DNA of 63,408 nucleotides, filler included, from Stramenopiles sp. TOSAG23-2 (Eukaryota): NCBI GenBank assembly GCA_900128395.1. It is 10 parts of 10 records of this genome, joined end to end, with 100 filler letters (N's around TTAATTAATTAA, not from the genome) between each part and the next. Parts side by side here need not be neighbours in the genome. Positions count along the whole stretch, not along the records: positions 25,269 to 33,570 come from LT650217.1; 9 more parts are not named here. One strand, given 5' to 3'. The notes under the pieces were generated by a model. It was given only the letters and a program-made list of their open reading frames with translations, did not search any database and was not told the origin of the DNA. Shown here in pieces: positions 8,338-61,986 of this stretch; position 1 is the stretch's first letter, and every line of letters starts with the position of its first letter. Both the position numbers and the translations under genes were made by a program.

Positions 8338-8437
8338 NNNNNNNNNNNNNNNNNNNNNNNNNNNNNNNNNNNNNNNNNNNNTTAATTAATTAANNNNNNN
8401 NNNNNNNNNNNNNNNNNNNNNNNNNNNNNNNNNNNNN
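8338..8437. other. Artificial contig-joining spacer N44-TTAATTAATTAA-N44 (first of nine)
   Basis: Identical 100-nt spacers at 8338, 16755, 25169, 33571, 41971, 50354, 58729, 60289 and 61849. The 12-mer gives stops in all six frames, and the flanking pieces fall in descending length order. Confidence 0.98.
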
Positions 8438-16024: not shown

Positions 16025-16961
16025 TATTAATATTAATTATTTTGTTTAAATAATATGGAAAACAAAAACTATATATGATATTGATGGAAAGCAACGAATA
16101 ATATATATATAAATATATATACAAAGACAGAAATATATATTTTATTTAATGATGCGTGCTACTCTACACCTATAGAGATGTAGACGTGTATATACACAAT
16201 TTGTTATAAATAATATATACAGACGACTATACTGATATATATATATATAGTCTCAGAATGTAAATCGATCATCTAAATAACTAAATTTAAAAAATCTATA
16301 TCTAATAATAACAAAATTAGACGACACATAATAAATTGGATGGTGGATGTGGTTGGATGGGTGTTGATGATGGAATCCGCATCATCATATCATCATGCAT
16401 GATTGACCTTGGAGGGAGTGGCCAATAATTATATGGGGTAATATCACTGTGACCTTGGACTGTTTTGATAATATCATACTATATATGTGCTATTATGCTA
16501 TTATTATTATTATATAGGAAACATACATACTACTATAATACGCAGCCTTGTTGCAAGAAGAAGATCAAATTTAAAAAAATAAATTCAATAAACTATACCC
16601 TGGTATAGTTAGTATACTGGTATATATTAATATATAGATAAAGAGCAAAAAGTAAATCATATACATAATAATAAAATCCAATAACTAGATATACAGAAAA
16701 AATAGAACGTACTTTCTTTACCAAGCTAATTGTTTGAAACATGATGAAACAACANNNNNNNNNNNNNNNNNNNNNNNNNNNNNNNNNNNNNNNNNNNNTT
16801 AATTAATTAANNNNNNNNNNNNNNNNNNNNNNNNNNNNNNNNNNNNNNNNNNNNTAGGTTGCAATTCAATATTTTCTAACAGTTATGTAAATTGCTTACA
16901 TTTTTTCGTATCACATATAAATATGTACATATGTTTACATTAGGAATATATTTTATGGTAT

Positions 16962-25149: not shown

Positions 25150-25270
25150 TTTGAAGGAAAAGGGGAGANNNNNNNNNNNNNNNNNNNNNNNNNNNNNNNN
25201 NNNNNNNNNNNNTTAATTAATTAANNNNNNNNNNNNNNNNNNNNNNNNNNNNNNNNNNNNNNNNNNNNAA

Positions 25271-25792
25271 TATGAATACAGAGATACAATACATAAGTCA
25301 GGTAAAACCATAGGATTTATAGCACAAGAAGTTCGTGAAATTATACCGAACGCAGTAATGTTAGAAAAACGATTTACTCCAAATGAAATGCGACATTTAA
25401 CAGATTTTTCATGGGAAAAAATAGTAGAAAAAAGTACTACAGAAGAAGGTACAGTAAAAGAAATTGTAAAATATAAATTACATACTGATTTACAAGATGT
25501 TAGTGGAGTAAAATATTTATTTTATGTTAGTAATGAACCAGATGGTATTGGAGAAGAAGCGGAATATGCGGTGGGAAATAATGATAATACTTTTACATTT
25601 CAGGAAAAATACAGCAATATATTCTGCTATGGAAAAGAAGTAAATGATTTTCACCAATTAGATAAAAGTAAATTATTTACTTTAAATTTTTCAGCCACAC
25701 AGGAGTTAATAAGGGAAAATGAAAACTTAAAAACTGAGATAAATGAGTTGAGAGAAGAAGTAAAAGTCATAAAAGCCTTATTAGGATTATAA
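25271..25792 (+). CDS. Fibre/spike C-terminus with intramolecular chaperone (Peptidase S74-like) domain, 5'-partial
   Basis: The frame is open from the contig start: YEYRD...IGFIAQEVREIIPNAV, then LNFSATQEL and a terminal coiled coil. Confidence 0.85.
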   Translation, partial: YEYRDTIHKSGKTIGFIAQEVREIIPNAVMLEKRFTPNEMRHLTDFSWEKIVEKSTTEEGTVKEIVKYKLHTDLQDVSGVKYLFYVSNEPDGIGEEAEYAVGNNDNTFTFQEKYSNIFCYGKEVNDFHQLDKSKLFTLNFSATQELIRENENLKTEINELREEVKVIKALLGL

Positions 25793-25819
25793 AAAAATAA
25801 TAAAAGTTATTATTATAGA

Positions 25820-26815
25820 ATGGTAGTAAAAAAAACTAAATCGAAAAAAACCACTAAGAAAACTTCAAAAAAAGGAAAAGGACTTTTAGACACTGCTAAG
25901 GCACTGTGGTATGGTCGCACTAAACTTCCTCCAAATGTTAGAAAAATTATGGAAAAACACGGCAACGATGAAATTGATTATATTCAGGTCGCCCGTAATC
26001 CACTTGCATCAAGCACAAAACTAATGTTAGATGTAGCCAGTTTAGGCACATTTTCGAGAGATGCAAAAAAACTAATGAAAGAAAAAAGTTATGACAGCCT
26101 CTTTCACCTGTACATGGTTATCACTCTGAAAAATGGAAAAAACATTTTAACAGAAAAAAACGCACAGATAAATATGGAATATAAAGGAGTGAGGAGAGAC
26201 GCTACAAGTAAATTAGTCAGTGTAAATAAAAAATTAACTCTGAACACTCTTATAGCAAATACAAAAAAACGAATGGGGGCTAATTTTCTGCCTTATGACG
26301 GATTTAAAAATAACTGCCAGAATTACATCCTTTCAGTTCTTAAAGCCAATAATTTAGGAAACGAAACAATATATAAATTCGTAAAACAGGATACATCTGC
26401 TATTTTTAAAAAATCACCTATATTTGCCAAAGTGACTCGTGCAGTGACAGATTTAGGTGCAAAGTTGGATATATTAAAACAAGGAGCGGGACAGAAAGGC
26501 AGAGGTGGTTGCTGGGATAAGGATGGCACTTTTGACAGGGATATATGCTGGGGGCTGTCCGACTGTTATAGCAAACAAAGAACTAGAACCAGACGCTGCA
26601 TGAAAAAAAAAAATAAAAATACCAAATACTGCGAGTGCCACTTTGGAAAAAACTCCAAAAATTTAAATCCAAAAGACCAGTATATCGGCACTCCTGCTTA
26701 TAAAACTCTAACAAAAAAACAAAAAGAAATGCTGAAAAAACTAGGAGCAGGTTGGGGTAAGAAAAGAGATACAGAAAAAGCACTAGAAATGTTAAAATTA
26801 TTGGGAAAATTATAG
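25820..26815 (+). CDS. Permuted papain-like NlpC/P60 (H...NC; LRAT/PPPDE-like) enzyme with basic GxG-motif extensions
   Basis: LFHLYMVITL (His), ILTEKN and YDGFKNNCQNY (NC motif). KKGKG near the N-terminus; KQGAG, GRGG and KLGAG near the C-terminus. Confidence 0.7.
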   Translation: MVVKKTKSKKTTKKTSKKGKGLLDTAKALWYGRTKLPPNVRKIMEKHGNDEIDYIQVARNPLASSTKLMLDVASLGTFSRDAKKLMKEKSYDSLFHLYMVITLKNGKNILTEKNAQINMEYKGVRRDATSKLVSVNKKLTLNTLIANTKKRMGANFLPYDGFKNNCQNYILSVLKANNLGNETIYKFVKQDTSAIFKKSPIFAKVTRAVTDLGAKLDILKQGAGQKGRGGCWDKDGTFDRDICWGLSDCYSKQRTRTRRCMKKKNKNTKYCECHFGKNSKNLNPKDQYIGTPAYKTLTKKQKEMLKKLGAGWGKKRDTEKALEMLKLLGKL

Positions 26816-26886
26816 TTGTCTAAATTTGGAAAAAAAATGATGTTTTAGGAAAATATTATTTTTTTATTTTCTTTCTATATTTTATA

Positions 26887-28740
26887 ATGACAGTTGAAAA
26901 TGTGACGAAATGGGACAGATGGTACAATTATATTGATGCCAGTGGCAACAAGCCTAACAAAAAATTATATCTCAAAAAAAAAATTATGCGTCGTATAACC
27001 AAAAAAAGAGAATTACCTTTGTTAAAAACTCTTCGACGATTTGGATTAGTAGACTTTGTTATGAAATTTGGAGATAAAGAAATGAAAGATAAACTGAAAA
27101 AACGCATGAGTATAGAAAAATACATCTACTCAGACCCAGAACCTTATCGCTTTCCAGATGGCAGAGTCGCAGTGGAATCTATATCGAATTATTATCAAGC
27201 ACCAGACGCTCCACTTCCTCCTCCTCGTCAACCTATAATTCAGACAATAGAGGAAATACCTCCTGAAAATAATAACTTTGAAGATGATGATAATTTTTTA
27301 GCCGAAGAAGATATGGACTTCATGACAAATGAACCAGAAGTTATAAATGTTGATGAACTGCCCAAACCAGTTAACAAAAAAGGAAATGAAAAAATTACAT
27401 TACAGGAAAATCAAAAAGTCTCTTACAACACTCAAGGTATAAGTGATTTAAGAAGTAGGAATCGAGCCATACAACAACAGCAAAAATATATGTTTAAGCA
27501 TTACAAACATAAAAAAGGCGACAGATTCGATTATCAGGATGCTATTGATGTGTTTGAAGACCCCAACACAAGAAGCACAAGAGGTAAACCGTATGCTCCA
27601 AAAACTATACAACAGTACAAGAAAAAGTTAAAAAAGTTAACTGAATTATTTGGTTGTAATACCGAAAGAACATACTGGAAAACTGGAGCAAAAAAAGGTC
27701 AGGTAAGAACAAAAGGCAAAGATATAATTAGTTGTTTTAATAAAGCAGAATCAGTTAAAGCAAAAATACTTGAAAAGAAATTAATTGGCTACCAGAATTA
27801 TTTAGGAGTTGTGGTTGCTCTTGCTAATGCTAGTCCCAGTTTTGCTGCCCGATTAGGACAAAGGCAGTTGCCAGAATATCGCAGATTGATGCGAGAAGGA
27901 ATGGAAGAAAGTAAGAAAAAAACAAAAGTCAAAAAAACACAATCTTTAGTAATAGACTGGAAATATTTTATCGAAGGATATAAAAAAGAAAAAATTAAAT
28001 GGGATAAATTTGTAATTAAAAAATTAAAAGAAAAGAAAAAAGCAGAACAAAATAATAAAAATTTCACTTTAGCGTCAAGTGATAAACTTTACATTACCAA
28101 TTTTTTACTTTTCGCTTTTCCAGTATTGTTAAATCCTCTTCGTGATAATTTTGGAAACATGAAAGTTATAAACAGTAGAAATGAAATTGACAAAACAACT
28201 ACTCAGAGTTATTATTACAGAAAAAAGGCAGTGTTTATTCTGCGACAGTATAAAACGATAAACACTTTTGGTGAACAGGAATATTTGCTTAAAAGTAATA
28301 ATGCTTTAAATAATTTAAAAAAATCTCCTCCTACTATTCGCTCCTCGATGAAAGAACAGGGAAAGGAATTAGGAAAAATAGTTGAACAGTCATTAGATTT
28401 ATGGGACAGAAAATATGTTATAGGAAAAAATAACGGAGATAAATATAAAGACGGAAAAATAGGCAGTCGAGTAGGAAATGCTTTAAAATATTTCAATATA
28501 CAAAAATTCAATCCTAATAAAAGAATAGTAAAAGGTAAAGAAGTGCCTATGAAACTAGGATATAATGATTTGCGACATTCTCGAGTTGTCTACAGTAGAA
28601 AAGTGGCAGATGACACTGATGAAGCAAAAGAATCTTTAGCAAGAAATATGCTTCATGCCACATTCACAGCAGACGAAGTGTATATGAGAGAATTAGGAGA
28701 TGGAAATTTCCAACAAAGAATAGCAAATTTAGAAAAGTAA
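26887..28740 (+). CDS. Tyrosine recombinase/integrase with long N-terminal extension
   Basis: Catalytic set R419 (NPLRD), K456 (YKT), N560-x-x-R563-H564 (NDLRH), H590 (MLH) and Y599. Core-binding-like APKTIQQYKKKL helix upstream. Confidence 0.85.
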   Translation: MTVENVTKWDRWYNYIDASGNKPNKKLYLKKKIMRRITKKRELPLLKTLRRFGLVDFVMKFGDKEMKDKLKKRMSIEKYIYSDPEPYRFPDGRVAVESISNYYQAPDAPLPPPRQPIIQTIEEIPPENNNFEDDDNFLAEEDMDFMTNEPEVINVDELPKPVNKKGNEKITLQENQKVSYNTQGISDLRSRNRAIQQQQKYMFKHYKHKKGDRFDYQDAIDVFEDPNTRSTRGKPYAPKTIQQYKKKLKKLTELFGCNTERTYWKTGAKKGQVRTKGKDIISCFNKAESVKAKILEKKLIGYQNYLGVVVALANASPSFAARLGQRQLPEYRRLMREGMEESKKKTKVKKTQSLVIDWKYFIEGYKKEKIKWDKFVIKKLKEKKKAEQNNKNFTLASSDKLYITNFLLFAFPVLLNPLRDNFGNMKVINSRNEIDKTTTQSYYYRKKAVFILRQYKTINTFGEQEYLLKSNNALNNLKKSPPTIRSSMKEQGKELGKIVEQSLDLWDRKYVIGKNNGDKYKDGKIGSRVGNALKYFNIQKFNPNKRIVKGKEVPMKLGYNDLRHSRVVYSRKVADDTDEAKESLARNMLHATFTADEVYMRELGDGNFQQRIANLEK

Positions 28741-28774
28741 GAAACTGAAATAAAAATATTTTATTATATTAAAT

Positions 28775-29557
28775 ATGCTTATTAAACTTGATTCTTCCAC
28801 AATTTCAGACCAGAATAGCGAAAGTTTTGAAGTGACATTCGATAATTTAAGTTTAGAAAAAAATGAAGATTATGAATTGGCACTGCTAAGAGCATCAGTC
28901 TGGTATTCATGGAACAACATATCTTCTGAATTTTCTAACAACACACTAAGATACAAATACTCCACTGATTCTGGAGCGTCTTATACTGATGTAAATATAA
29001 CTTTTGAAAATGGAATTTATTCTGTTGACGCAATAAATAATAAATTAGCAACTGTATTAGAAGCCAATAATCATTTTGCTACTGTGAACGGGATAAAACA
29101 GTATCCAATAGAAATATGTCCGAATTATACAACACTTTTAGTTGATGTAAAATTAAATCAGACATTAGTTAGCGGTACAATTTTTCAACTAGATTTTACC
29201 ACTTCAAAATTAAGGGAATTATTAGGATTTAATTCTAGTGTTCTTTCCACTACCACATCATCACCAAACCAACCTAACATTACTCGAGATGTCAATACTC
29301 TCATGATAAAAAGTTCAGTTGTTGAGGGAAGTTTTGAAAATGGAAAAGCGTCAAATGTTTTATATGCCTTTTCTCCTAGCGGATACAGTATAGGAAGTAA
29401 TATTAATGTTGAACCAACGCAGCGAGTGTATTTACCTGTGTCCGAAAAAAATAACATTAGTAGAATACGAATGGAATTAGTAGACCAACAATCCCGACTT
29501 GTAAAAACTAATGATGACATTACCTATCTACTGCATCTTAGAAAAATCAAAAAATAA
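28775..29557 (+). CDS. Minor capsid protein (penton), Polinton/adintovirus type
   Basis: 260 aa, beta-rich. YELAL...YSWNNI, GIYS...IN, VNTLMIKSSVVEGSF, LYAFSP, IxVEP...YLPV and LVDQ...LHLR follow the Polinton penton pattern. Confidence 0.85.
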   Translation: MLIKLDSSTISDQNSESFEVTFDNLSLEKNEDYELALLRASVWYSWNNISSEFSNNTLRYKYSTDSGASYTDVNITFENGIYSVDAINNKLATVLEANNHFATVNGIKQYPIEICPNYTTLLVDVKLNQTLVSGTIFQLDFTTSKLRELLGFNSSVLSTTTSSPNQPNITRDVNTLMIKSSVVEGSFENGKASNVLYAFSPSGYSIGSNINVEPTQRVYLPVSEKNNISRIRMELVDQQSRLVKTNDDITYLLHLRKIKK

Positions 29558-29575
29558 TATAATTTATTATATATA

Positions 29576-30127
29576 ATGGTAAAAATTTATAACAAAACTC
29601 AGGTTCGACGAATTAAAGGTTATGGTCATGTTCCAGTTCGTATGCATGGTGACGGAAGAGGACAAGTGTTATTTCAGTCTGCAAAACAAATGGCGAAATA
29701 TGCTGTTCCCGTGTTGAAAAAAGTCTGGTCTAATATATCTCCAGAAGCGAAACAGGCTATGTTCGATGCGACAGTAGATTTAGGAATTCGAGGAGTGAAA
29801 AAAGTCGGTTCTACCGTACAGTCGGCTTTTGGAAGAGGTTTAGGAAAAAATTTACAATTAGAGGCAGATAGTTTAGGCGATTCTGCCAAATCTAAATTAG
29901 AGGAATTAGTTGGGGATTCTTCTGACCGCATATCTAAAAAAGCAGAAAAATTATTAAAAAAAATGGCTTCGCAAACGAAAAAGAGAATAAAAAAAGAAAT
30001 AAAAAGAAAGGCTTTACCGAAGTCAGTTGAAAAAATGTTAACACCTAGTCAGCGAAAAAAATTATCAGAGAAAAGTGAAGTTTTATTATCCAATTTATTA
30101 GCAGGACAGGGACTTCGATTACTTTAA
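29576..30127 (+). CDS. Basic virion core/cement-like protein with GxG protease-type motifs
   Basis: Lys-rich, with IKGYG, HGDG, FGRG and terminal AGQGLRLL. Lies between penton and MCP. Confidence 0.7.
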   Translation: MVKIYNKTQVRRIKGYGHVPVRMHGDGRGQVLFQSAKQMAKYAVPVLKKVWSNISPEAKQAMFDATVDLGIRGVKKVGSTVQSAFGRGLGKNLQLEADSLGDSAKSKLEELVGDSSDRISKKAEKLLKKMASQTKKRIKKEIKRKALPKSVEKMLTPSQRKKLSEKSEVLLSNLLAGQGLRLL

Positions 30128-30177
30128 AAGATATTATATGTAATTTATAATATTTTTTTATCTTTTTACATAGTATA

Positions 30178-31491
30178 ATGAGTTTAATAAATCCTAGCCT
30201 AGATTTTTTCTCTGAACCTCTTTCCGATGAGAGTATTGAAAGTAAAGAATATCAAGTTTACAACCCTAATGACTTAGGTGAATATGGAACAACAAAAACT
30301 AGATTTGAAATAAACATTCACCCACAAGATGTATTTCAAAATTTTAGTGAAGCAAGAATTGAGACCACTGTAAAAATAGTAAAATCTGACGGAACAGCAT
30401 TAGATACTGGAAACGACACCGAAAATATTGCTTTACAAAATGGTTTTTGGTCGTTGTGGGAAAGAGCAGAATTGCGAGTTGGTAATGGTGCTGCATCTGT
30501 TGAATCTATAAATTTCGCCAATGTGGCAGCACAGATGAAATTTTTAACTGAGGCTTCTGACGACTATAAACGAACAAGTGGAACAAATATGGGAGTTTAT
30601 TTAGATTCTGGAGATGGGGCGGCAAGTTCTGCCAATACTGGTTGGAATTCTAGATTTGAACTAGCAAAAGCCAGTAATAGTATTACTTACTACGCTCCAT
30701 TAAAACACCTTTTCGGCTACTGCACTAATGGCAAAGTGACTCGTGGATTAAAACATACGGTTATTCTGACTCGAGCATCTCACCCGAATATGATTCATGT
30801 TGATGGTGCTGCTACTGCTGGTTCAAAAGTATTTATTGAAAATGTAAGAATATGGTGTCCAACTGTTGTGCCTTCTTTAGAAGTAATTCAGAATTACGAA
30901 AATAAAATGTTGGAAGGCTTTAGTCAAAAAATTAATTTTGAGAGTATGAACTGTTATAGAAGTGGAGTATTTCAGGCATCAGACCAGACTCCAGTTTATC
31001 GAGTGACAACCGCTATTGCGAATCCAACAGCACTAATTATTGGTGTACAGGCTAGTGCAACTGATAATAGTGAAACCGCTAATAATCAAATTTTTCTAAA
31101 TACACGAATGACAGAATTTGAAGTTCGTTTGAACAACACACAAATTCCTCGTGAGAAATTAATTACTAGTTATAAAAATCCAAAAAATTATGGTAGGGCA
31201 TATCAAATGTTGCAGGACTATAATAATAAATTTGGAGATTCTCAGTCTGGTTCTTGTGTAAATTTAGCAGAATTTGAAAGTATTTATAATTTATTAGTAG
31301 TAGATTTAAAACACGTGCCACCTATGGTTTTTAACACAAATAATAGTGCCGATATTGAAATTAGATTAAGAAGAGATGGTACAGGAGGAGGATACACCAG
31401 TCCAGCCATTCATATTTACTGTCTGGTAATGTCAGATACAGAATGCGTTGTGTCGGGAACATCTGGAGAAATTAGGTTGGAAAAATTGTAA
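30178..31491 (+). CDS. Major capsid protein (double jelly-roll), Polinton/adintovirus type
   Basis: 437 aa. DESIESKEYQVYNP N-terminus, PLKHLFGYC...HTVILTR, IWCPTVVPS, LNNTQIP, RAYQML and VDL motifs typical of Polinton hexons. Confidence 0.88.
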   Translation: MSLINPSLDFFSEPLSDESIESKEYQVYNPNDLGEYGTTKTRFEINIHPQDVFQNFSEARIETTVKIVKSDGTALDTGNDTENIALQNGFWSLWERAELRVGNGAASVESINFANVAAQMKFLTEASDDYKRTSGTNMGVYLDSGDGAASSANTGWNSRFELAKASNSITYYAPLKHLFGYCTNGKVTRGLKHTVILTRASHPNMIHVDGAATAGSKVFIENVRIWCPTVVPSLEVIQNYENKMLEGFSQKINFESMNCYRSGVFQASDQTPVYRVTTAIANPTALIIGVQASATDNSETANNQIFLNTRMTEFEVRLNNTQIPREKLITSYKNPKNYGRAYQMLQDYNNKFGDSQSGSCVNLAEFESIYNLLVVDLKHVPPMVFNTNNSADIEIRLRRDGTGGGYTSPAIHIYCLVMSDTECVVSGTSGEIRLEKL

Positions 31492-31518
31492 TATTATTTT
31501 CTGTATTTATTGTATAAT

Positions 31519-31767
31519 ATGATAAGCCGTCCACCACCCCCACGAGGCTATAAATATAATCCAGTTAACGGAAAATTAGAGAAAAAACCAAAAGGTGTAA
31601 GAACAGTTGGTAGAGGACATGGAAGAAGACATAATAAGAAAAGGAAAAGAAGAAGAGGAGGAAATTTAGCAAGAGTAGTTCCACATGCAAAAAAGATGTT
31701 GAGTTTAGCAAAAAAACTAACAGGTGAAAAAAAATTAAATAGAATGCTTCGTCGTTTATTAAAATAA
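31519..31767 (+). CDS. Small Arg/Lys-rich DNA-condensing core-like protein
   Basis: ATG at 31519. Very basic, with VGRGHG and RRRGG motifs. Confidence 0.7.
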   Translation: MISRPPPPRGYKYNPVNGKLEKKPKGVRTVGRGHGRRHNKKRKRRRGGNLARVVPHAKKMLSLAKKLTGEKKLNRMLRRLLK

Positions 31768-31818
31768 AAGTATTGATAAAATTATTAATACTTTTTTTTC
31801 TAATCAAATATTATAAAT

Positions 31819-32055
31819 ATGGTGCATAAAAAATGTAAATGTAAAAAGCGTGGTAGGAAACGCAAGGTCGGGAGACCTTTAGGTAGTAAAAATAAAAAAG
31901 GCAGAAAAAAGACAGGTAAAGGTTTAGGCAGTTTAGCAATAAAAGGTGCGAAGACATTTGGTCCGCCAATTGTTGCTGGATTGTTAAGTGAGTTAATTTT
32001 AAAAAACTTAAAAAAGGGAAAGGGAAGTTTTGGCAGGGGGCTTCGTTTGCTTTAA
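31819..32055 (+). CDS. Small basic core-like protein ending GRGLRLL
   Basis: KVGRPLGSK AT-hook-like motif, TGKG followed by an amphipathic helix, then KGKG and FGRGLRLL. Confidence 0.75.
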   Translation: MVHKKCKCKKRGRKRKVGRPLGSKNKKGRKKTGKGLGSLAIKGAKTFGPPIVAGLLSELILKNLKKGKGSFGRGLRLL

Positions 32056-32510
32056 AATTAGAGCAAGATGAAGCCCTATCTAATTTTGACTTAGATGAGA
32101 TGCTGAAAAATAGTCCTTCTTATTTAGGCACTTTCTCCCATGACACAATTCCCACTTTTTCGAATGAAAGATTTAGTGCAATTATCAATTACCACGATTA
32201 TAATCAGGAAGGTTCACATTGGATATGTGTATATAATTCTCCAGAAAAGAAGTACGCCGAATTTTTCGATTCGTTTGGAATGCCTCCCTCAGACGAAATT
32301 TTAAAAAAATTAAAACAGACTGGAAAAAAAGTTTTATACAATACTTCCAAAATCCAAAATATTACATCTTCCAAATGTGGGTTTTATTGTTATTTCTATA
32401 TCATCATGCGGGATAAAGGGATGAACCCGTATGATATTTTATACGAGTTCGAACCAGAAGGTAAAAAAAATGATAATATTTTAATTGATTTATTAGAAGA
32501 TAAATTATAA
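31992..32510 (+). CDS. Adenain/Ulp1-family cysteine maturation protease (frame open from 31992, first ATG only at 32100)
   Basis: GSHW (His), FFDSFG (Asp), KIQ (Gln) and CGFYC (Cys). The conserved-looking LSNFDL N-terminal motif lies upstream of the first ATG. Confidence 0.9.
   Translation, partial: VNFKKLKKGKGKFWQGASFALKLEQDEALSNFDLDEMLKNSPSYLGTFSHDTIPTFSNERFSAIINYHDYNQEGSHWICVYNSPEKKYAEFFDSFGMPPSDEILKKLKQTGKKVLYNTSKIQNITSSKCGFYCYFYIIMRDKGMNPYDILYEFEPEGKKNDNILIDLLEDKL
31998..32088 (+). promoter_or_regulatory. Candidate -1 programmed ribosomal frameshift signal (slippery heptamers plus stem-loop)
   Basis: In-frame heptamers T_TTA_AAA 31998, A_AAA_AAC 32001, A_AAA_AAG 32010 and G_GGA_AAG 32016. 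Hairpin GGGCTTCGT-TTGCTTTA/TAGAGCAA-G-ATGAAGCCC at 32038-32076, extendable to 32030-32083. Confidence 0.6.
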
Positions 32511-32544
32511 AATATTTTAATATGTTGTATATATATACTAAAAT

Positions 32545-32781
32545 ATGTCCGTTTATTTAGCAAATTGGATTGACGAATATAGTTTCGGCTATTATTGCGA
32601 ATCATGTTCTCGAGAGCATGTGCATGGCTGCTGCCGTGATTTCATTACTAATCGAACTGAAAATCGAAGCAGACACTGTGATAAAATTCGAGGAAATGTG
32701 GATATAAAAATTACACCAGCAACTACTAGAAGATTGAACAGAAGAAATATGAGAATTTATGAAAACACTTTAACCAGATAA
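32545..32781 (+). CDS. Small viral putative Zn-binding protein
   Basis: CESC...HVHGCC...RHC, with an AT-rich leader like the other viral genes. Confidence 0.6.
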   Translation: MSVYLANWIDEYSFGYYCESCSREHVHGCCRDFITNRTENRSRHCDKIRGNVDIKITPATTRRLNRRNMRIYENTLTR

Positions 32782-33375
32782 ACCCATTCCCACTGTTGGT
32801 GCAGTTGGAGGAGGAGGCAACATGGCTTCAAGTCGAGTTAAATTATTTTCCTGTTCCCAGTAGTCTACAGCATCACACACACAGTCCCAGACAGTCTCAC
32901 TCATATTGTTATAAATATAGTGGTGAAGTGTTGTGTGAGTGGTGGTGTTATCGTTATTCATAACTGCTACAAGTCTTTTAAGTCTATCTATTTTCTCTAG
33001 TCTATAAGGTACTTCTAACATCTCGCACAAATGCGAACCATCATCATTTTCTCTTAAGTCTTCAATTTCATCTTCCACTTCAGGTATTAAATCATCCTCA
33101 ATATGCCATATAGCATCATGCATAAAACAACAGACACAACGCTTCTTCTTCTGTTTTAACTCGTTATTCTCCCTAATAACTTTTCTTAAATGTCGTTCCA
33201 CATTCTGTTTCTGAATTTTAATTAGTCTAAACTCATTAAGATTCATCGCTTTTAACACTTTTATCTGGTTTTCTAACTCCTTTATTCGCTGTGCATGTTT
33301 AACATCCCTTCTTGATTTCTCGCTTTTAGTACGCTTTCGTCTATCTTTATTTCTGCGTATAACCTTCGATTTTTT
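32770..33375 (-). CDS. Viral coiled-coil protein of unknown function, start unresolved
   Basis: The frame is open 33375-32770 (202 codons) and overlaps an upstream truncated frame at 33518-33282. Confidence 0.6.
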   Translation of the reverse strand, partial: KKSKVIRRNKDRRKRTKSEKSRRDVKHAQRIKELENQIKVLKAMNLNEFRLIKIQKQNVERHLRKVIRENNELKQKKKRCVCCFMHDAIWHIEDDLIPEVEDEIEDLRENDDGSHLCEMLEVPYRLEKIDRLKRLVAVMNNDNTTTHTTLHHYIYNNMSETVWDCVCDAVDYWEQENNLTRLEAMLPPPPTAPTVGMGLSG

Positions 33376-33515
33376 CTATTTAATCGTTTTGTTGCTTTAT
33401 CCAATTTTTTTTTAATATCCGTGATGTGTTCAATAGCCTTCTTTTTATCACGATTGGCGAAATTTTCGATGAACCATTCATTAACTTTTAGTAATTTGCG
33501 TTCACATTCTTCGTC

Positions 33516-33570
33516 TTGTTAACTGGTTTGGGCAGTTCATCAACATTTATAACTTCTGGTTCATTTGTCA
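33516..33570 (-). repeat. Exact 55-bp inverted copy of 27323-27377 at the contig end
   Basis: Reverse complement is TGACAAATGAACCAGAAGTTATAAATGTTGATGAACTGCCCAAACCAGTTAACAA, identical to part of the recombinase gene. Confidence 0.95.
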
Positions 33571-33706
33571 NNNNNNNNNNNNNNNNNNNNNNNNNNNNNN
33601 NNNNNNNNNNNNNNTTAATTAATTAANNNNNNNNNNNNNNNNNNNNNNNNNNNNNNNNNNNNNNNNNNNNAAGTAGATTATCAAAAACCGCTGGAAATGG
33701 CTTAAG

Positions 33707-38703: not shown

Positions 38704-39097
38704 AAGGATTTGCTGTGCTGGACTGCTGGACTGCCACAGACGACTGCTACGCCTCGTATACAGTACAGTACTCTCTGGCTGGGCTGGCCCGGCTGGCCCG
38801 CTTGGAATACCACCACGGTGGTAGTATATTTAGTATTTATATATTTAGGAAAAGTTGATAGGAAAAGCTGATGGGCACAGATTAGTATATAAATAAGATT
38901 GAGTCCTATTTATATGCTAAATAAGTCGATTTTGTTTTTCCTCTTATTTTTCAAGGACTTTTCCAGCACTTTACCATAAACACACTACTGTAATTAAAAG
39001 GTAAATTTCATACGAATCGTAAATTTTATAGCATACCCATAATATCTTTAAAATATTTTTTTTATCCATTTAAGCTTCACACAATAAAAGTCCTCTC

Positions 39098-41930: not shown

Positions 41931-42508
41931 GGAAAGAGGAGAAAGGACAACGAGATTACATATTGTTGTANNNNNNNNNNNNNNNNNNNNNNNNNNNNNN
42001 NNNNNNNNNNNNNNTTAATTAATTAANNNNNNNNNNNNNNNNNNNNNNNNNNNNNNNNNNNNNNNNNNNNTACGCGATGCACCACTTCCCATATTATATA
42101 TCTCTATATTCTGAATGATCGAGTAGAAACAGAAAAAGATATATATATATATAGGTAGATAGATTGATAGATAGAGATATGCAGAAGTATGTATTTCTAG
42201 AAAGATGATACACAAGAGAAATTGAAGTTTAAAATAAATGTCGTGTAGATTTGCCAACAACAACCACTACCACACACTATCCATGACACATGTATATATA
42301 TATCTGATCTACTGTTTACATCAAAATGTGTGTGTGTTGCATATACTTATAAATAATAATATGCTAAATGTAACTCCATCATCATATAAGTGGGAACAAC
42401 AATGTGATTTAAAATGCAATAGTGTGTCGTTTTATTTTATTAAAGCTTAAGTTTTACGTCGTCTCACATTGTATCATCATATAATAGTAGCAGAGAGGGC
42501 ATGAGGCC

Positions 42509-50353: not shown

Positions 50354-50453
50354 NNNNNNNNNNNNNNNNNNNNNNNNNNNNNNNNNNNNNNNNNNNNTTA
50401 ATTAATTAANNNNNNNNNNNNNNNNNNNNNNNNNNNNNNNNNNNNNNNNNNNN

Positions 50454-58728: not shown

Positions 58729-58900
58729 NNNNNNNNNNNNNNNNNNNNNNNNNNNNNNNNNNNNNNNNNNNNTTAATTAATTAANNNNNNNNNNNNNNNN
58801 NNNNNNNNNNNNNNNNNNNNNNNNNNNNTTTTTCTACGGCGTTCACTTCGCTGTTCTGGTGTATATTTCGATGTTCTAGTTCTCAATCCTTTCATTTAGG

Positions 58901-58932
<32 letters not shown>

Positions 58933-60840
58933 AATATTCGTTATAAATATAATATTAATAATGTAACAATACAATATATCTAAATTATAAATATATATAC
59001 ACTGGGTGTAAGTGTTAACTTGTATAAATACTTTGATATTTTGTTTTCATGTCTTTTGTTTTCATGATGCGATAAATGGCAATGGTGGTGGTGATTCAAT
59101 TTGTGATTTTTTTTTAAAAAAAAAATGTAAGAAGTTGATAGGTATGTTTTATCGTATACTAATATATCATATATTGTGTATATGTTAAATGTAAATATAT
59201 GTTGTACTTAGATTTAATCATTCCCAAACAATATTTTCAGACCTGTGATGAGATGTAGTAAAATTATATTCATTTCTTCTTCGGCATGCTGTGCGGTGCT
59301 ATTGTTGGGGTAGCTATACCTTAAAAAAAGTCTAAGGACAAAACTTAGCATGGACAACATTGCTAACGGTGTGTATAAGCTAGCAAATTGTAGTGAGTGC
59401 TGTGTCATGCTATCTCGTGGCCATTATTTGGCCATTTAAGGGTTTTTGCCATCGTGGTCATTCCAGTACTATGTAATGTATATACCTCTTTAGCAGGTGA
59501 ATACCATCGTATTTTTTGGAGAACCTATTGATATTGTTAAAATAAAAAAATCCGATTTTATTTTTGTAAAGTGTACGTGTATATGTTCTATTTATTGTAT
59601 TTTAATTATTTATTTAAAAAACAAAATGAAATCACAAAATCCTTTTTTGAAATTCATTTTTTGTTAAACCTGGTTTGCAGAGAGAAGAAAAGCGAAAAAG
59701 AAGAAGGTAGAGCTGATATTTTTAACAGGGGCATACCAGCATACCTAATCGGGTCCATAATCCATAAAAGTGATGCGCCTACACAGCACTGGTTATTTTT
59801 CATTACGAATATAACCAGGCCTGTGTACCTGTTAATCCGGAAGTCGCTAGTAAAATATCATATATTGAAGTATAATAATTAGTAGTCTAAATAGGTTCAG
59901 CTGAGGGTGGTGGAAATCGATCAGAAAAACAAACGAAAATTCATCCAATCGATCAATCGATCAATGAAGCCATGCGTGAGATGTGTGTGTGTGTGTGATT
60001 GTGTGAAATTTGTGAAAATATCTACCTTTGGATTGATACATAGAAGATTATTTAGCTATTTGTTGTGTTGGATTTCTTTTTTTCGAAAGTTGTGGTTTTA
60101 GTTTTATCTTTTGATTTTTTTATAATAATTTTTGTTGATTATAATATAAATTTTAAGAAATTTTACCGTGGGATTAAATAATTAGTGGATTTATTGGAAA
60201 ATATATAATACAATTTTAAATAAATAAACATGTCGACACATCAAATTCATACATCCGATTCATGGATAGCAAAACAAGTAGTATCCAANNNNNNNNNNNN
60301 NNNNNNNNNNNNNNNNNNNNNNNNNNNNNNNNTTAATTAATTAANNNNNNNNNNNNNNNNNNNNNNNNNNNNNNNNNNNNNNNNNNNNATCCATTAATAA
60401 TTCGAGATAGTGTTGTAAAATGGCTGGCTGGGCTGGCTGATGACAATAATAATAAAAAGAATACCTCCGGTAGTAATTTGTAAAAAAAACACGAGGGATG
60501 GAGACATACTTCTCGTACAAAAATTTAATACAGAGAGAAGTAATATATATTATCAAAATATTATATTTAATATTTTAAAATATGTTGTTCAGGTTGTACA
60601 TATATTAACAAGGACCAAGATATACTCTACCAAGGTACGATGTATCATAAATCGTTGACAAGCACTGTATTCTTTGGAGAGTAGGAATTGTTATGAGTAG
60701 GAATAAAAAATTAAAATACGCGCGTACATTTTATATTATTTTAAAATATATACTTCGTATCATACATCACTGACATCATATATACATTTTTCATATTCTT
60801 CTTCTTCGTACAATGTACAGTGTATGCATATGTTATTTTG

Positions 60841-61242: not shown

Positions 61243-61986
61243 ACATAATAATTATGATCTTGTAGAACATATACGGTGGGTTGGCATATGAAGAGAGTTT
61301 CCCTGAAGTTCCAAGAATAAAAGAATAATTGTAAATACAATAATTTATAATCATTCATCTGTAACTCTAGTACCAAATAGCTATAAAATAGCAGTTGAAT
61401 AGTATGCTTTCTGTTGCATCTAATGATGTGTGGTTGCCATTGGTTTAAGGGTCCAAATTCGATCAAAACTTCGTTAAAATCCTTAGTATATAAATCTGAT
61501 ACCATCAAGTACAAATTCTAATTTTTATGCTCCAATAATAATTATAATATTTAATGCAACACCAAGATCAAGAATCAAGATTTTGCATTACAAATCCCTT
61601 AAAAATGTTGCATTATCGTAAATTATCTCATGCAACAATTTGCACAATTCTCCCCCAAATTTCAGATAATATGTGCATATGGAAGCATCGTTGCAATAAT
61701 CGTGTAAGTACAATTAATTATTATAAATCCCTCAAAATATTTATACATATACACACATGACAATATCTATCTCTATTCCATTTCTCTTTCATTAGAATAC
61801 TTCATCTCTTATCTTTCTTACAAACAAATGCAATGAATGGAACATTATNNNNNNNNNNNNNNNNNNNNNNNNNNNNNNNNNNNNNNNNNNNNTTAATTAA
61901 TTAANNNNNNNNNNNNNNNNNNNNNNNNNNNNNNNNNNNNNNNNNNNNTTCCTGTTCCTCTTCTTCCATAATTTTAGCCCTTTTAA

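Follow-up and report, generated by a model that had tools for sequence, protein, structure and literature searches.

Probable recoding of an adenain-type protease from the end of a small core gene in an apparent polinton-like virus

Introduction

Programmed frameshifting and stop-codon readthrough are characteristic features of retroelements, phages and RNA viruses, and in eukaryotic DNA viruses we know of recoding only in odd cases, namely in herpesviruses and in the release factor of giant viruses. In this study, a window of 63,408 nucleotides (nt) from Stramenopiles sp. TOSAG23-2 (assembly GCA_900128395.1; the window is the whole stretch of DNA that was analysed) was examined at the junction of two overlapping plus-strand genes, a small and very basic core gene and an adenain-type cysteine protease gene. 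The conserved N-terminus of the protease precedes the first ATG of its frame. Based on the comparative analysis of this junction, we consider it probable that programmed recoding yields a core-protease fusion of 230 amino acids (aa).

In herpesviruses (UL26/UL26.5) and HK97-like phages, the protease enters the procapsid as a low-stoichiometry extension of an abundant internal protein. The adenovirus protease (adenain, AVP), whose substrates within the particle are core and capsid precursors, is translated from an ATG of its own; it is packaged via DNA binding and the pVIc peptide, and we know of no recoding or fusion for this enzyme. To our knowledge, the route by which adenain-type proteases enter the particles of polintons, polinton-like viruses (PLVs) and virophages has not been established. 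In giant viruses, which are DNA viruses of protists, the release-factor gene reportedly combines frameshifting with readthrough.

Recoding in the release-factor gene of giant viruses is reported in PMC3521657. Moreover, the thymidine-kinase and LANA/EBNA cases of herpesviruses are described in a recoding review (PMC5009743), of which the first 300,000 characters contain herpes but no match to adenovirus, polinton, maverick, mimivirus or "DNA viruses". The nearest printed statement found was a single sentence in an adintovirus preprint (PMC11071296), which suggests, from KnotInFrame predictions, -1 programmed ribosomal frameshift isoforms for Hexon-Adenain ("Hexain") and Penton.

Results

The protease frame is open from stop to stop at 31992-32510, directly after a TGA at 31989-31991. 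It occupies the -1 frame of the core gene and shares 64 nt with it. The core gene (31819-32055; ATG 31819, TAA 32053-32055) encodes 78 aa with 26 Lys plus Arg residues and an isoelectric point (pI) of 11.9, and it represents the 0 frame of the proposed recoding. The first-pass annotation had placed the opening of the protease frame at 31992 within the 78-aa gene and had seen no ATG before 32100, and both statements were borne out by the sequence. The codons that precede this first in-frame ATG read LEQDEALSNFDLDE (32058-32099); they lie after the core stop and are predicted to encode the strand and helix with which the adenain fold begins.

The protein encoded by this frame matched the Pfam family PF00770 (26.3 bits against a cut-off of 21.3), and its profile matched 1avp_A (E 3.6e-10). 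An AlphaFold2 model of 32058-32507 had a predicted local distance difference test (pLDDT) score of 93.7 and superposed on the adenovirus protease 4wx4_A over 145 residues (Z 17.5, root-mean-square deviation 2.2 Å), with model residue 5 corresponding to chain residue 1 and with a helix at residues 9-15 (N9-M15, NFDLDEM). A profile search gave 9875 relatives at E <=0.001, and a 30-sequence alignment was composed of 23 out of 30 matches picked from those listed, P0006, P0010 and five sequences of the present lineage (P-numbers denote protein matches); the aligned matches are a selected set, in which the match to the profile began after residue 10. In this alignment, H54, Q100 and C107 were invariant and D71 was at least 90% conserved, and by analogy we take H54/D71/C107 to be the adenain triad and Q100 the oxyanion Gln. 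These residues define a catalytic core at 32217-32378 (His 32217-32219, Asp 32268-32270, Gln 32355-32357 and Cys 32376-32378). By family match, predicted fold and catalytic residues, the protease is a member of the adenain family (peptidase C5, CE clan cysteine proteases). Furthermore, the ratio of non-synonymous to synonymous substitution rates (dN/dS) was 0.05-0.15 within the clade that has the -1 arrangement, which comprises the window and the metagenome loci L001-L006, out of ten related loci (L001-L010); by this measure, the protease is under purifying selection.

The ATG-less segment was analysed codon by codon. Across the 14 codons of 32058-32099, the four distinct sequences of the -1 clade varied in 3, 1 and 9 columns at codon positions 1, 2 and 3, respectively, and their pairwise codon differences were 28 synonymous to 12 non-synonymous in the protease frame, whereas the other two frames gave 1:37 and 3:35. 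In the 30-sequence alignment, the LSNF Leu was at least 90% conserved, and the Met of all 23 Met-starting members was located 3-9 residues before this Leu. Judged by its substitution pattern, family conservation and modelled fold, the segment 32058-32099 is translated, and LSNFD is the conserved family N-terminus, matching adenain from residue 1 on.

An independent start at ATG 32100, by an internal promoter, reinitiation or leaky scanning, would produce a 136-aa enzyme without the first helix, and the hairpin described below and the open upstream frame would then be of other cause. This codon (32100-32102, M37 of the open frame) is located at the end of the first helix and is not the usual family start. 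It was retained in all seven -1-clade sequences as well as in L007 and L008, it was chosen by gene callers in P0003-P0005 and P0007, and an out-of-frame ATG with an 8-codon mini-ORF (open reading frame) in the core frame (MKPYLILT*, 32068-32094) ends 5 nt earlier and could allow reinitiation. However, the 14 codons upstream of it evolve as protease-frame coding sequence and encode the conserved N-terminus, which is part of the fold, and M37 is replaced by Leu in L009, L010, P0006 and P0010, with L009 lacking any ATG before the catalytic His. Given the helix at NFDLDEM and the superposition from adenain residue 1, a start at 32100 would remove the N-terminal helix of the family. In addition, four further ATGs intervene after the core ATG, which stands in good context.

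The ATG at 32100 also lacks a leader. Among the 11 plus-strand ORFs of the viral block (25269-33570), nine have an AT-rich leader that extends to the start codon and in most cases contains a TATA-like word within its final ~12 nt, and none precedes ATG 32100. The absence of an AT-rich TATA leader had been recognised in the first-pass annotation and was borne out, although one other ORF (25358, located 90 nt inside the contig block) is likewise without a leader. The promoter-like leader at 31780-31818, which ends in TATAAAT directly before the core ATG, would be the sole leader for both core and protease. On balance, initiation at 32100 is unlikely. With regard to the mini-ORF, its ATG at 32068 is possibly a relic of the ancestral protease start (MKP-LSNFD) shifted by 1 nt; it is not a general start, since L004 has TAG right after the same ATG.

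Initiation at a non-AUG codon upstream of LSNF, for which the Leu triplet at 32058 is one candidate, would give no fusion; the template would be either the core mRNA or a transcript that has escaped notice. A TTG is present at the codon matching 32058 in L001, L003, L005 and L006, and gene callers began P0001 and P0002 at TTG. UUG, however, is a weak eukaryotic start, and the window and L004 have TTA at this position, so that the codon alternates between synonymous forms for Leu. Moreover, the members of the clade have no near-cognate codon in common, L009 contains none, and the hairpin and the UGA-CUA arrangement of the relatives would be left unexplained. This explanation is regarded as rather improbable.

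Three states were found among the relatives. In the first, the window and L001-L006 share the same 64-nt overlap in the -1 frame at 72-95% protease identity (L002 is cut at the contig start). In the second, which is of putative readthrough type, core and protease of L007-L009 lie in one frame across AAA UGA CUA CCA. In the third, represented by L010 and the protein P0006, the two genes are also in the same frame and the protease has its own ATG, which in L010 follows the TGA by two codons in a AAATATATG context that resembles the leaders. Homologues of the core gene sit upstream of the protease in L001 and L003-L010. In human genes, UGA CUA is described as the consensus associated with high readthrough (PMC4359377), and it is also the context of Sindbis-type viral readthrough (PMC13517186). 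A reassignment of TGA in L007-L009 was rejected; two other L009 genes end in TGA, which is thereby a stop in L009, and the standard code leaves the ORFs uninterrupted. Scans of viral contigs found no further relatives with DNA. In the sample of the window, a second contig (depth 2.7 versus 243) was observed at 32118-32149, with a flank like the L005-type junction (ELDEMLKNSK), which points to the presence of another related PLV in that sample.

The -1 state is associated with an RNA hairpin of 18 base pairs (bp) with one bulge and an AAAU loop at 32037-32077, which carries the core stop UAA (32053-32055) at its tip and is a candidate frameshift stimulator. A hairpin of ~17 bp at 32038-32076 had been noted earlier; it is real and slightly larger, and an extended base described at 32030 also exists, but only as a weak 4-bp extension. 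At -24.7 kcal/mol, this hairpin is the most stable of 12404 plus-strand 50-nt windows (mean -4.6, standard deviation 3.1), with a fold z of -3.5 to -3.7. Its complement reaches only -15.9 kcal/mol, and the strand asymmetry fits an RNA element with G-U pairs. The hairpin is present in the window, L001, L004, L005 and L006 (z -3.5 to -4.6) and absent from the same-frame loci L008, L009 and L010 (z -1.4, 0.05 and 0.06, respectively; 83-nt folds). In the stem alignment (four distinct sequences), 91.7% of cells were paired, and no Rfam match was obtained in 31700-32300 at E up to 1. The occurrence of the hairpin only with the -1 arrangement argues against a generic transcript-end signal; this candidate was rejected, the other gene ends of the block being without a comparable fold (next best -16.3) and the fold being absent after the core gene of L008-L010.

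In L004, L005 and L006, a spacer of exactly 6 nt separates A_AAA_AAC from the conserved stem core GGGCUKC, and this predicted combination of heptamer, spacer and stem is a textbook -1 frameshift signal. In the aligned columns, the window and L001-L003 have A_AGU_UUU (32025-32031), a non-canonical heptamer 6 nt before GGGCUUC, for which re-pairing would be perfect in the A site and poor in the P site. The window additionally holds a cluster of phased canonical heptamers at 31998-32022 (U_UUA_AAA 31998, A_AAA_AAC 32001, A_AAA_AAG 32010 and G_GGA_AAG 32016). All four were present where the first-pass annotation had named them, but they end 33, 30, 21 and 15 nt before the stem core (32038) and do not qualify as slip sites at the canonical distance. 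A long -1 ORF (162-168 codons) follows only these four heptamers, as compared with at most 36 codons behind the other 64 phased heptamers of the block. The slip site of the window lineage would be either G_GGA_AAG at 32016 or A_AGU_UUU at 32025.

The same fusion could arise on a fraction of the mRNA by transcriptional slippage, in which the polymerase adds one A in an A6-A7 run (32001-32006 or 32010-32015). Such runs are found at every -1-clade junction, a one-base insertion gives the -1 frame, and potyvirus P3N-PIPO uses GAAAAAA. However, equal A-runs are present in same-frame relatives (A7 in L008 and L009) and throughout the lysine-rich genes, and runs of 6-7 are short for DNA-dependent polymerases. 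Moreover, a strand-specific hairpin 6 nt after A_AAA_AAC would have no explanation. Polymerase slippage is regarded as quite unlikely.

A tiny intron (GT 32027 to AG 32061), with excision of 35 nt bringing core and protease into a common frame, is most improbable. Its acceptor AG is replaced by GG in L001-L003, L005 offers no GT...AG in the appropriate length class, and the one spliced model found (P0158) is an ab initio artefact. The same applies to a bypass between the Leu codons CUU 32050 and CUA 32076, which match in the window and L001 but not in L004 (UUG/CUG) or L005 (AUU/CUU).

The reliability of the junction was assessed with read and contig data. The first-pass annotation had offered a competing explanation, a 1-nt deletion in ATG AAG CCC(C)TA at 32068. 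Such a deletion could be an assembly or sequencing error, or a private mutation in a decayed, dead copy. In its favour, MKP-LSNFD would fit the usual distance of the family Met from the Leu, and the stretch from GLRLL to LSNF is 7 nt shorter in the -1 clade than in the same-frame clade. Run X1, which may be the source, matched exactly at a word depth of 243, a match that is not independent; independent contigs of seawater and viral-fraction metagenomes spanned 31961-32191 with 0 gaps (X2 records 4 and 5; X5 record 23). The read check that had been proposed for such an indel revealed none between 31931 and 32509 in any of the 4 runs compared. In addition, the same frame relation recurs in six more loci, down to 72% protease identity, L004 has a TAG after the displaced ATG, and the dN/dS values do not fit a dead copy. 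An assembly error or private indel is therefore rejected and is scarcely credible. Nevertheless, a 1-nt loss may be the ancient origin of the arrangement; the 7-nt difference between the clades makes an old indel a likely origin, and frameshifting would then probably act as the fixed rescue of an indel that displaced the protease ATG.

No Pfam family was matched by the 78-aa core protein or by the 82-aa basic protein encoded next to it. The core may resemble adenovirus pX in having a basic N-terminal part, a hydrophobic C-terminal part and a length of ~80 aa. Its C-terminus, G-x-G-L-R-L-(L/I) (window 32035-32055), was strongly conserved in every locus with a core end, down to ~58% protease identity. 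This GxGLRLL tail would be absent from the -1 fusion and retained in the readthrough fusion; we can only guess that it is cleaved or that it serves as a cofactor peptide in the manner of adenovirus pVIc.

Related proteases of other lineages were found fused in one ORF to virion-type N-terminal domains (P0052, P0119, P0139, P0086, P0069 and P0115). In P0052, P0119, P0139 and P0086, the protease is the C-terminal domain of 300-370-aa proteins with N-terminal GPGT...HD..Y motifs, which to us recall the phospholipase A2 of parvovirus capsid proteins, and P0069, P0115 and P0141 have another N-terminal domain in common. Long open N-terminal extensions are also present in P0010 and P0012. Fusion of the protease to virion-type proteins seems recurrent, and this was counted in favour of the core-protease fusion. 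One candidate for a natural core-protease fusion, P0158, was rejected as an artefact of an ab initio eukaryotic gene model on viral DNA; in this 498-aa model, splicing joins the capsid gene to most of the core gene and to the C-terminal 17 residues of the protease (window 30178-32510).

The window consists of separate contigs in descending size from ~8.3 kb to 1.46 kb, chained by nine N44-TTAATTAATTAA-N44 spacers (8338-8437, 16755-16854, 25169-25268, 33571-33670, 41971-42070, 50354-50453, 58729-58828, 60289-60388 and 61849-61948). As it is a chain of contigs and not a single molecule, gene adjacency across a spacer is meaningless. The viral genes are confined to their own block (25269-33570, from LT650217.1), which contains virus-like genes only and which we read, from its gene content, as a genome fragment of a PLV. 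Eukaryote-like genes (DEP, EF-hand and cNMP-binding in Pfam) sit on other blocks, and the second most stable 50-nt fold of the window (38776-38825, -23.7 kcal/mol) is located on a different, eukaryote-like block.

On the plus strand of the viral block, a double-jelly-roll capsid gene (30178-31491; PF21738, E 1.7e-14) is followed by a second very basic gene (31519-31767; 82 aa, 29 Lys plus Arg, pI 12.0), which lies between the capsid and core genes. ORFs matching the latter in size and place only are present in L004 and L006. The gene order of the block was also found in L009 (a 10.9-kb contig, of which 9242 bases were examined), where no ORF of at least 60 aa separates capsid and core and the core gene is directly 3' of the capsid gene. 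After the protease, a 78-aa Cys/His-rich ORF (YYCESCSREHVHGCC...CDK, 32545-32781, plus strand), without a Pfam match, is perhaps zinc-binding, and post-protease ORFs of similar size are present in L004, L006 and L009. A moderately stable fold (32783-32832, -16.1) lies just past the stop of this ORF, a convergent minus-strand ORF (32770-33258) also terminates near it, and the fold may signal transcript ends in both directions. At the end of the block, 55 nt (33516-33570) are a 100% reverse complement of 27323-27377, inside a 617-aa gene, which looks like a fold-back or chimeric contig end and not a terminal repeat.

Discussion

In the present study, the evidence from the junction points to a scheme in which the protease, having neither a leader nor a start codon of its own, would be translated from the core-gene mRNA. 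A minority of ribosomes would slip back 1 nt within the last ~20 codons of the core gene, where the 18-bp hairpin at 32037-32077, with the core stop at its tip, is proposed to stall them. Whichever heptamer is used, the slipped ribosomes would continue in the protease frame and produce the 230-aa fusion, and most ribosomes would stop at 32053 and yield abundant core protein. The fusion would set a low ratio of protease to core, the protease would probably be carried into the particle through the putative DNA-binding core part, and self-cleavage of the fusion, for which the first-pass annotation had suggested GxG sites, would come later. Slippage itself, its rate, packaging through the core part and the later self-cleavage are parts of this proposal that we infer. 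Sister lineages would reach the same end by UGA-CUA readthrough (L007-L009), and another keeps a separate ATG (L010 and P0006). Taken one step further, it appears about an even chance that this lineage of small marine DNA viruses of protists has switched, among close relatives, between an own ATG, UGA-CUA readthrough and hairpin-stimulated -1 frameshifting, the last two making a core-adenain fusion that doses and packages the enzyme. The -1 frameshift to a ~230-aa fusion put forward in the first-pass annotation has gained from the coding character of the ATG-less N-terminus, the link between hairpin and frame, the A_AAA_AAC of three relatives and the UGA-CUA of others; for the window itself, the claim falls short, as a canonical heptamer at canonical spacing is lacking there.

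Several observations weigh against frameshifting at this junction or leave the signal incomplete. The window and L001-L003 lack a canonical heptamer at a spacing of 5-9 nt from the stem, their nearest one being G_GGA_AAG at 15 nt. Phased heptamers are frequent by chance, and more so in lysine-rich tails; 68 occur in the 2957 codons of the 11 plus-strand ORFs of the block, and at this near-chance frequency they are weak evidence on their own. The A_AAA_AAC at 6 nt from the stem may be a single inherited event common to L004 and L005/L006. The conservation among relatives that had been called for was found for the overlap and for the stem, but covariation was not significant (one U-A to G-U double change, with 123 of 500 shuffles reaching the score), and since each arm of the stem also encodes protein, some of the stem conservation may reflect constraint on the amino acid sequence. 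A pseudoknot-like pairing had also been claimed for the loop. The complementarity exists over 9 nt in the window (32054-32062 with 32079-32087) but over only 5, 5 and 6 nt in L001, L004 and L005, so that the pairing is not conserved; an H-type pseudoknot was rejected on this ground, and with a loop 3 of 1 nt across a 14-bp stem it would be sterically implausible. Furthermore, readthrough in L008 and L009 has no supporting downstream structure in the 83-nt folds, and a search for longer proteins with the core found no natural single-ORF core-protease fusion.

If true, a low-frequency core-protease fusion would answer, for one lineage, how the protease enters the particle. It would be the first comparatively supported case of recoding-based capsid-protease delivery in a eukaryotic DNA virus and a convergent re-invention of the retroviral strategy. 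The three expression states of one gene pair would also form a natural set for studying the origin of recoding signals. The findings have a bearing on annotation as well. Gene callers cut the protease at M37 or begin it at a chance TTG, start-less protease genes in PLV surveys may be recoded and not decayed, and the splicing of three viral genes into one by a eukaryotic gene model (P0158) illustrates the risk for viral genes.

Compared with known systems, the predicted arrangement is closest in print to the adintovirus "Hexain" of the preprint sentence cited above, which concerns the same virus realm and the same protease family and in which a structural protein is likewise joined to adenain by a predicted -1 frameshift. 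The partner there is the hexon; here it is a basic core protein, and the evidence is comparative, comprising the ATG-less N-terminus, the hairpin-frame link and the readthrough sisters. With the adenovirus protease, the enzyme described here has in common the fold, the Pfam family and a gene position just after the capsid and core genes. Herpesviruses and phages obtain their scaffold-protease fusions not by recoding but from nested genes in one frame, with promoters or starts that are separate, and their protease family is unrelated. L007-L009 are similar to type II readthrough of the Sindbis type in placing UGA CUA between core and protease in one frame; unlike that type, no extended downstream stem-loop is predicted locally, the virus is a DNA virus, and the arrangement belongs to the relatives and not to the window. 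The giant-virus case concerns a translation-factor gene in another virus group, unlike the structural-protease pair of this study. Finally, as in retroviral Gag-Pro and Gag-Pol, which are expressed by -1 frameshifting (for example in MMTV and HIV-1) or by readthrough (gammaretroviruses), an abundant structural or nucleic-acid-binding protein would be extended at low frequency into the maturation protease, by a slippery heptamer with spacer and structure or by a leaky stop, and relatives would use either type of recoding. Unlike retroviruses, the present case is a DNA virus with a double-jelly-roll capsid, in which recoding is predicted from sequence and the 78-aa basic upstream protein is not Gag and has no homology to it. 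The junction would work like Gag-Pro without being a member of that system, since its protease is an adenain-family cysteine protease and not an aspartic one.

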